Sequence record: AP018932
DNA from: Escherichia phage KIT03
Length of the DNA stretch: 64,000 nt
Reading direction: 5' to 3' (one strand)
Shown here one piece after another: positions 60,349 through 61,107 of the stretch; the first letter of the stretch is position 1; each line of letters begins with the position of its first letter. The notes beneath the pieces are model-generated. The model worked only from the letters and a program-made list of their open reading frames with translations, did no database searches and was not told the origin of the DNA. The translations under genes and the position numbers were made by a program.

Positions 60349-60669
60349 TTATTCTTTAAATCTAATCAATTTATTCATAGACTTTGAAACTTCTGCACGA
60401 ACCTCATGTAAGTTTTTAAGCTGTTCAAGACGCTGCGTATAGTAAGCAATTTCATCTTCTTCGAGACAGTCCTGTGAATCTTCTTTAAGATAACGTGCAT
60501 AGTCCTGGAAAGCTTTACGGACTACTTCCTGGAAGTCATCAAGACTTTGAATTTTCTTAGGAGCGGCAGATACACGACGAGGTGCAGTATAATACTCATA
60601 ACCAAACCCTGCGCTTAATTGAGCCATTAGTATTTTTCCTCTGGTTGGAACACTGCACGACAAGCCCAC
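60349..60669 (-). CDS. hypothetical protein, 106 aa
   Basis: ORF. Confidence 0.5.
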
Positions 60670-60929
60670 ATACTGGCTTCTTTGAGTTTCGTTTTAGCAA
60701 TAGTTAACTGATCGAGGCTTTCAGCATAATTCTTCGCGAGTTCATCGTCTTCACAGCTATCAAATGCTTCCCAAAATTCATCGTATAAAGCATCAAAGAT
60801 AAGTCCTAAACGAACTTCAGCGTCTTTGATAGCATTCACTTTACCGATTTTCTCTTCGGTATGCGGCTTATAACCCTTAATATCTTCAATCATATTTGAC
60901 TTCCTCACCAGTACATAAATCATATTCAA
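60627..60929 (-). CDS. hypothetical acidic protein, 88-100 aa (start uncertain)
   Basis: ORF overlapping upstream gene; internal Met at 60893 possible. Confidence 0.45.
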
Positions 60930-61107
60930 CTAAACGAATAGGTTCATGAATGCCATATCCCTGAACAGAAATTTCTGTCGTAGGATAAATTCCATCAATA
61001 TCACCCATATTCCAGGCTTCATTAAATTGCTGTTCGCCTGAATTACTAAACCACTCGGCGAAAGCATTTAGCACATCTTTAGAACCTTCAATAATTATCT
61101 TTGCCAT
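60886..61107 (-). CDS. hypothetical protein, 73 aa
   Basis: ORF. Confidence 0.45.
   Translation of the reverse strand: MAKIIIEGSKDVLNAFAEWFSNSGEQQFNEAWNMGDIDGIYPTTEISVQGYGIHEPIRLVEYDLCTGEEVKYD

Follow-up and report, generated by a model that had tools for sequence, protein, structure and literature searches.

The product of gene vs.4 of phage T4 is Acb2, for which a crystal structure is available (PDB 7UQ2). In this protein, cGAMP is contacted by Y8 and F82 through pi-stacking and by Y8, H11, K23 and R79 through hydrogen bonds or salt bridges, S74 has an effect, T12 acts as a helix cap, L60 was recovered in a mutant screen, and residues L29, F33, A66, A73 and A77 form the hexamer interface (PMC10097602). 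The Vs.4 homologues collected in that work by Jenson et al. were drawn from PHROG 717. T4 Acb2 binds cyclic dinucleotides and not cA3 (Cao et al., PMC10312549), and the exclusion of cA3 has been attributed to D61, which corresponds to R67 of PaMx33 Acb2, and to the steric contribution of Y37, A57, L60, D61 and T64; T68 is also among the residues proposed to exclude it. The pocket roles of residues Y11 and K26 in PaMx33 Acb2 are described in the same study. In addition, T4 Acb2 binds the decoy nucleotide 2'3'-c-di-AMP and thereby triggers Panoptes (PMC12657218).

The product of the neighboring T4 gene, Vs.3, is TadIV-1, which acts as an N7-cADPR sponge and thereby blocks type IV Thoeris (Chen et al. 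2026, PMC13243611). As described in that study, from which the structure of UPEC07 TadIV-1 (PDB 9WIW) also comes, TadIV-1 is a dimer of two-helix protomers with a KD of about 216 nM and a flexible N-terminal loop that is essential, and binding by the T4 protein depends on R17, R18 and K24. Homologues of approximately 90 residues (>80 aa) are active and those of approximately 70 residues are inactive. Type IV Thoeris is nevertheless effective against phage T2, which encodes a functional TadIV-1; carrying the gene is thus not sufficient for the phenotype.

The window analyzed here is a stretch of 64,000 nucleotides from Escherichia phage KIT03 (AP018932). Its open reading frame list and raw sequence show that positions 60349 to 61107 are exactly filled by three minus-strand ORFs. 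These ORFs and the features that flank them are as follows.

59828-60289, minus strand: regB endoribonuclease gene, the downstream flank (Pfam REGB_T4, E=8.1e-69)
60317-60345, minus strand: promoter-like site (TTTACT-17 nt-TGgTATAAT) within the 59 nt that separate the vs.3 stop from the regB start
60349-60627, minus strand: vs.3 (tadIV-1), 92 aa from an ATG at 60627
60627-60893, minus strand: vs.4 (acb2), 88 aa from an ATG
60886-61107, minus strand: vs.5, 73 aa, a conserved acidic protein
61107-61469, minus strand: vs.6, a GrcA-like glycyl-radical cofactor gene, the upstream flank (Pfam Gly_radical, E=2.2e-18)

The sequence-only reading of this DNA had described three small acidic ORFs between regB and a GrcA-like gene, had placed them at the vs.3-vs.5 positions of T4, and had proposed from position that the vs.4 slot holds Acb2. 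The number of ORFs and both flanks are borne out, the latter by the Pfam matches listed above, and the placement is confirmed by gene order and by 98-99% identity to Tequatrovirus genomes, RB14 among them. The description of the ORFs as acidic holds for two of the three products (pI 4.58, net charge -8; pI 4.14, net charge -10, the latter Vs.5) and is marginal for the third (pI 5.88, net charge -1). The proposal for the vs.4 slot is supported by the comparisons given below, and a genuine anti-immune gene was thus recoverable from raw sequence by position alone. That reading had extended the label of a candidate Acb2-like sponge region to the block as a whole, which is appropriate for the middle ORF and not for its neighbors: Vs.3 is an unrelated sponge that had been overlooked, and Vs.5 resembles no sponge. 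Our main reading is that this block is the vs.5-vs.4-vs.3 early segment of a Tequatrovirus, in which two unrelated immune-signal sponges lie beside Vs.5, and we assign it a probability of approximately 0.93.

The layout of the block is that of its relatives. A 1.7-kb region around vs.3-vs.5 shares 98-99% identity with numerous Tequatrovirus genomes; one of these is RB14, in which the same three genes are annotated as vs.3, vs.4 and vs.5, and the gene at 61107-61469 carries the label vs.6 or GrcA in the RB14 and T4 records. The T4 reference has the identical order regB, vs.3, vs.4, vs.5, vs.6, and KIT03 RegB shares 100% amino-acid identity with T4 RegB. In KIT03 the early-gene block runs vs.8-vs.7-vs.6-vs.5-vs.4-vs.3-regB, entirely on the minus strand. 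The ATG starts of vs.3, vs.4 and vs.5 agree with the RB14 and T4 annotations and are preceded by purine-rich stretches that resemble Shine-Dalgarno sequences. The longer forms in the ORF list, a GTG-initiated vs.3 of 106 aa and a TTG-initiated vs.4 of 100 aa, are mechanical extensions into the gene upstream. As read from the sequence, the stop codon of vs.6 overlaps the start codon of vs.5 as TAATG, the stop of vs.5 overlaps the start of vs.4 by 8 nt (ATGATTGA), and the stop of vs.4 overlaps the start of vs.3, again as TAATG. These overlapping stop and start codons suggest that vs.5, vs.4 and vs.3 are co-transcribed and translationally coupled. The promoter-like site ahead of regB has 10 of 12 consensus matches and an extended TG and is a consensus match only, and the scan as a whole returned no excess of such sites over shuffled sequence (12 found, 10.9 expected). 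Rfam, repeat and terminator scans of the vs.3-vs.5 block gave no family, notable repeat or convincing terminator.

The spurious GTG- and TTG-extended forms are the one feature that would suit a reading of the three ORFs as chance open frames or annotation artefacts. That reading has next to no probability and is already refuted by conservation as judged from sequence comparison: the three proteins have from hundreds to more than 1000 full-length orthologues, orthologues of two of the three have solved structures, and the dN/dS values of vs.3, vs.4 and vs.5 are low (0.07-0.09 against T4 and 0.11-0.21 against a Mosigvirus), indicative of purifying selection.

The middle ORF, Vs.4, matches the Pfam family PF24729 (Acb2_Tad1_hairpin) at E=8.2e-20 and 71.2 bits, relative to a gathering cut-off of 27 bits, and falls into PHROG 717 (E=6e-32). 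Aligned with crystallized T4 Vs.4 (7UQ2), it is identical at 84 of 88 positions (95%, E=1.7e-53), and it is 100% identical to RB14 Vs.4. The match to PaMx33 Acb2 (8IXZ/8H2J) is weak, with E about 0.05 in phmmer and 21% identity in a structural alignment. An AF2 model built from the single sequence (pLDDT 87) places helices at residues 10-45 and 50-81, and in a Foldseek search this predicted hairpin retrieves 7UQ2 as the top match (E=2e-9, TM 0.74), followed by the Acb2 structures 8H2X and 8H2J. Similar to T4 Vs.4, the KIT03 protein has 88 residues, occupies the same genomic slot and retains the pocket and hexamer residues. Residues Y8, H11, T12, K23, L29, F33 and L60 are invariant among KIT03, T4 and RB14, as are A66, A73, S74, A77, R79 and F82, so that all of the published cGAMP-contact and hexamer-interface residues of T4 Vs.4 are present. 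Y8 and K23 align to Y11 and K26 of PaMx33. On every feature testable in silico, from sequence to predicted fold, KIT03 Vs.4 is a member of the Acb2 family, and by analogy with the T4 protein it would be expected to form hexamers, bind ligand and act against CBASS.

The ligand range of KIT03 Acb2 can be considered in the same terms. In contrast to PaMx33 Acb2, the KIT03 and T4 proteins lack an equivalent of R67, which is needed for cyclic-trinucleotide binding, and have D61 instead. The residues Y37, A57, L60, D61, T64 and T68 of T4 Acb2 are all retained, and KIT03 Acb2 is expected, as is T4 Acb2, not to bind cyclic trinucleotides. F82, the residue mutated in a Panoptes escaper, is also kept, and KIT03 is predicted to be sensitive, via Acb2, to decoy systems such as Panoptes.

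The four substitutions between the T4 and KIT03 proteins, L44F, N46S, C50D and F52L, all lie at the predicted tip of the hairpin. Full-length matches to Acb2 were found by tblastn in 1236 phage records, and across genera of the Straboviridae the N and C termini are nearly identical and the middle of the hairpin (approximately residues 33-69) is hypervariable in both sequence and length, a pattern that may reflect diversifying pressure such as that of decoy systems. Between the Tequatrovirus form in KIT03 and that of a Mosigvirus, identity is 91-95% at the termini and 27% for residues 33-69. The KIT03 allele (F44, S46, D50, L52), which is shared with RB14, might on these grounds differ from T4 in ligand range or decoy sensitivity, given that all four differences fall within the hypervariable segment, flanked by termini that are more than 90% identical across genera, and that the ligand spectrum is known to vary among Acb2 homologues (PMC10312549, PMC12393519). 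We consider such a difference improbable; residues 44, 46, 50 and 52 lie outside the published ligand-contact, hexamer-interface and cA3-excluding sets, and the overall dN/dS of the gene against T4 is 0.09.

Vs.3 shares 98% identity with T4 Vs.3, from which it differs by the substitutions V21A and N38K. It matches UPEC07 TadIV-1 (9WIW) at E=1.1e-37 and PHROG 2037 at E=1.4e-40, the latter over residues 22-92, and no Pfam or NCBIfam family was matched. The KIT03 protein is the long form of 92 residues, with an N terminus identical to that of the T4 protein, and has R17, R18 and K24, which are invariant between the two; as in T4, its gene lies immediately upstream of regB. Relative to crystallized UPEC07 TadIV-1, which has 101 residues, a 9-residue insertion is missing from the N-terminal loop of KIT03 Vs.3. 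By sequence, then, KIT03 Vs.3 is TadIV-1, a second sponge adjoining acb2 and unrelated to Acb2 in sequence and in ligand. Its binding of N7-cADPR, its dimeric state and its activity against Thoeris are attributed to it by analogy. Matches to Vs.3 were found by tblastn in 721 phage records, of which 620 are full length.

Taken together, Vs.4 and Vs.3 of KIT03 are, from their sequences, near-identical orthologues of characterized proteins and are in that sense already known. The block thus sets an anti-CBASS Acb2 beside an anti-type IV Thoeris TadIV-1, two unrelated sponges. From their 95-98% identity to the proteins studied in T4 and UPEC07, and from the complete conservation of functional residues, we infer how they would act in KIT03. 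Early in infection the phage would make both sponges. The Acb2 hexamer would have three pockets at its dimer interfaces that sequester 3'3'-cGAMP and other cyclic dinucleotides, and the removal of a cGAMP-type messenger would raise the threshold for activation of the CBASS effector. The N-terminal loop of TadIV-1, with R17, R18 and K24, would capture N7-cADPR, the type IV Thoeris signal, and with this signal held by the TadIV-1 dimer the caspase-like effector would stay off. Both sponges would work by stoichiometric sequestration, not by degradation. KIT03 is accordingly predicted to resist cGAMP-type CBASS and type IV Thoeris.

The third protein of the block, Vs.5, has 73 residues, a pI of 4.14 and a net charge of -10, and belongs to PHROG 1986, a family listed as of unknown function. 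Full-length matches were obtained by tblastn in 987 phage records, and those examined are all T4-like (Straboviridae and Marfavirus). When 1.8 billion representative proteins were searched exhaustively, only six relatives of Vs.5 were recovered, and another protein homologue search gave no more than 5 proteins, all near-identical. Sequence searches against Pfam, NCBIfam and the PDB were negative, even with a profile of 15 sequences. The AF2 prediction, which was built on a 10-sequence alignment, indicates that Vs.5 is an alpha/beta protein, and the predicted fold had no fold match. Neither sequence nor fold similarity was observed to the known sponges Tad1, Tad2, Acb2, Acb4, Sequestin, Lockin and TadIV-1, and literature searches on Vs.5 returned nothing relevant. 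In the Vs.5 alignment, the invariant residues are M1, F16, W19, G24, E25, Q26, E30, G50, E61, Y62, T66 and E68; these positions are mostly aromatic or acidic and include no Lys or Arg, which argues, if weakly, against an Acb2- or TadIV-1-type nucleotide pocket.

Compared with T4 Vs.5 from a resequenced clone (OL964735.1, 73 aa; locus L009, 487-708), the KIT03 protein is 99% identical and occupies the same slot between vs.6 and vs.4. In the T4 reference NC_000866 (locus L002, 3382-3558), by contrast, Vs.5 has 58 residues, the last 41 of which are out of frame, whereas the KIT03 form is intact. The frame shift arises from one missing base, with TTTCG-CGAG in NC_000866 in place of TTTCGCCGAG in KIT03 and RB14, and the 58-residue form is probably a sequencing error.

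Two candidate relatives of Vs.5 were set aside. The best-conserved motif of Vs.5, AEWFSNSGEQQF, is similar to the repeat unit DIAWFENNGSQSF of P0007, a metagenomic FG-GAP/VCBS-type repeat protein of 895 aa that was one of the six proteins from the exhaustive search (summed E=2e-12); since the score is summed over seven repeats and the AF2 prediction places the Vs.5 segment in a helix, this likeness is probably motif-level convergence or coincidence. An apparent 189-residue fusion of the Vs.5 N terminus in Klebsiella phage vB_Kpn_AM_K4 contains only approximately 57 residues of Vs.5 and is uninformative. The record of this phage, at 288 kb, is unusually long for the group.

The small genes that occupy the slot between vs.8 and regB vary among T4-like genera. 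The genes found before regB are as follows.

Mosigvirus: vs.6, vs.5, acb2, vs.3
Dhakavirus and Marfavirus: vs.5, acb2
Moonvirus: vs.5, acb2 and an extra 57-aa ORF
Jiaodavirus: vs.5, vs.6, acb2
Karamvirus (Entb_43): vs.5, vs.6, acb2 and an unrelated 76-aa ORF
Gelderlandvirus: vs.5 only

From this varying content and from the record counts, the sponges behave as exchangeable accessory genes, and Vs.5, on the gene orders compared, is not obligately linked to either sponge. The 76-residue ORF that occupies the vs.3 slot in Karamvirus was considered as a relative of Vs.3 and rejected (BLASTP E=0.16). ORFs of 76, 57 and 54 aa lie in the slot beside acb2 and regB in other T4-like genera, where Tequatrovirus has tadIV-1 (76 aa in Karamvirus loci L006, 3390-3620, and L011, 2169-2399; 57 aa in Moonvirus locus L010, 2010-2183; 54 aa in locus L011, 1730-1894), and these could be further accessory or anti-defense candidates.

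Two interpretations of Vs.5 were weighed against these gene orders. Vs.5 may serve host takeover or metabolism, for example together with Vs.6 (GrcA-like) and Vs.7, its adjacency to the sponges being incidental. It spans more genera than Vs.3, stays with the vs.8/vs.7 backbone where both sponges are missing, and, with the exception of Gelderlandvirus, adjoins vs.6 or vs.7 in all genera examined; we nevertheless hold such a role to be a tentative possibility, as no domain, motif or fold ties Vs.5 to metabolic or regulatory families and the loci of Dhakavirus, Marfavirus, Moonvirus and Gelderlandvirus contain vs.5 without vs.6. The other interpretation makes Vs.5 a third counter-defense protein, either a sponge or an inhibitor that mimics protein or DNA, and the block a three-gene anti-immunity cassette. 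Consistent with this proposal, Vs.5 is small (73 aa) and has no match to any housekeeping family, there is an 8-nt overlap between its stop and the acb2 start in KIT03, and in Mosigvirus, Dhakavirus, Marfavirus and Moonvirus loci its gene immediately precedes acb2, the two being annotated as overlapping by 4-11 nt. The small-gene content of the slot also varies by genus, as it does in accessory anti-defense regions, and vs.5, conserved in 987 phage genomes, is subject to purifying selection. When Vs.3 to Vs.8 were expressed singly, type IV Thoeris was blocked by Vs.3 only (Chen et al., PMC13243611). We regard the cassette interpretation as rather unlikely, and it is similarly doubtful that Vs.5 is an undescribed third counter-defense factor with a fold unlike those of the known sponges. 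If it were, vs.5-acb2-tadIV-1 would constitute a compact, translationally coupled anti-signaling cassette in Tequatrovirus and Mosigvirus phages. Vs.5 is present in approximately 1000 sequenced phages, has no recognizable fold relatives and is flanked by a GrcA-like gene on one side and the two sponge genes on the other; its conservation, isolated fold and location make it a reasonable candidate for an anti-defense screen.

The wider neighborhood of the vs.5-vs.4-vs.3 segment in KIT03 also contains several features of note. For vs.8 (61804-62403, minus strand), the start is ambiguous: the longest ORF, from 62403, encodes 199 residues, and an internal ATG at 62346 (MRTFLTGPY..., 180 aa) corresponds to the start residues of the Mosigvirus and Gelderlandvirus orthologues. 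The vs.8 product in the RB14 annotation has 189 residues. The gene upstream of vs.8 (62482-62955, minus strand) encodes an Ip4-type internal protein (Pfam DUF7412, E=2.5e-95). T4 has denV, ipII and ipIII at this position, and the KIT03 layout matches that of RB14, not that of T4. Just downstream of regB, vs.1 (59275-59820, minus strand) encodes a protein with an SLT transglycosylase domain and an N terminus that resembles a signal peptide, and tk.4 (58465-58944, minus strand) encodes a macro-domain protein (Pfam Macro, E=6e-8). This macro domain, close to the sponge genes, could bear on ADP-ribose-based host defenses.
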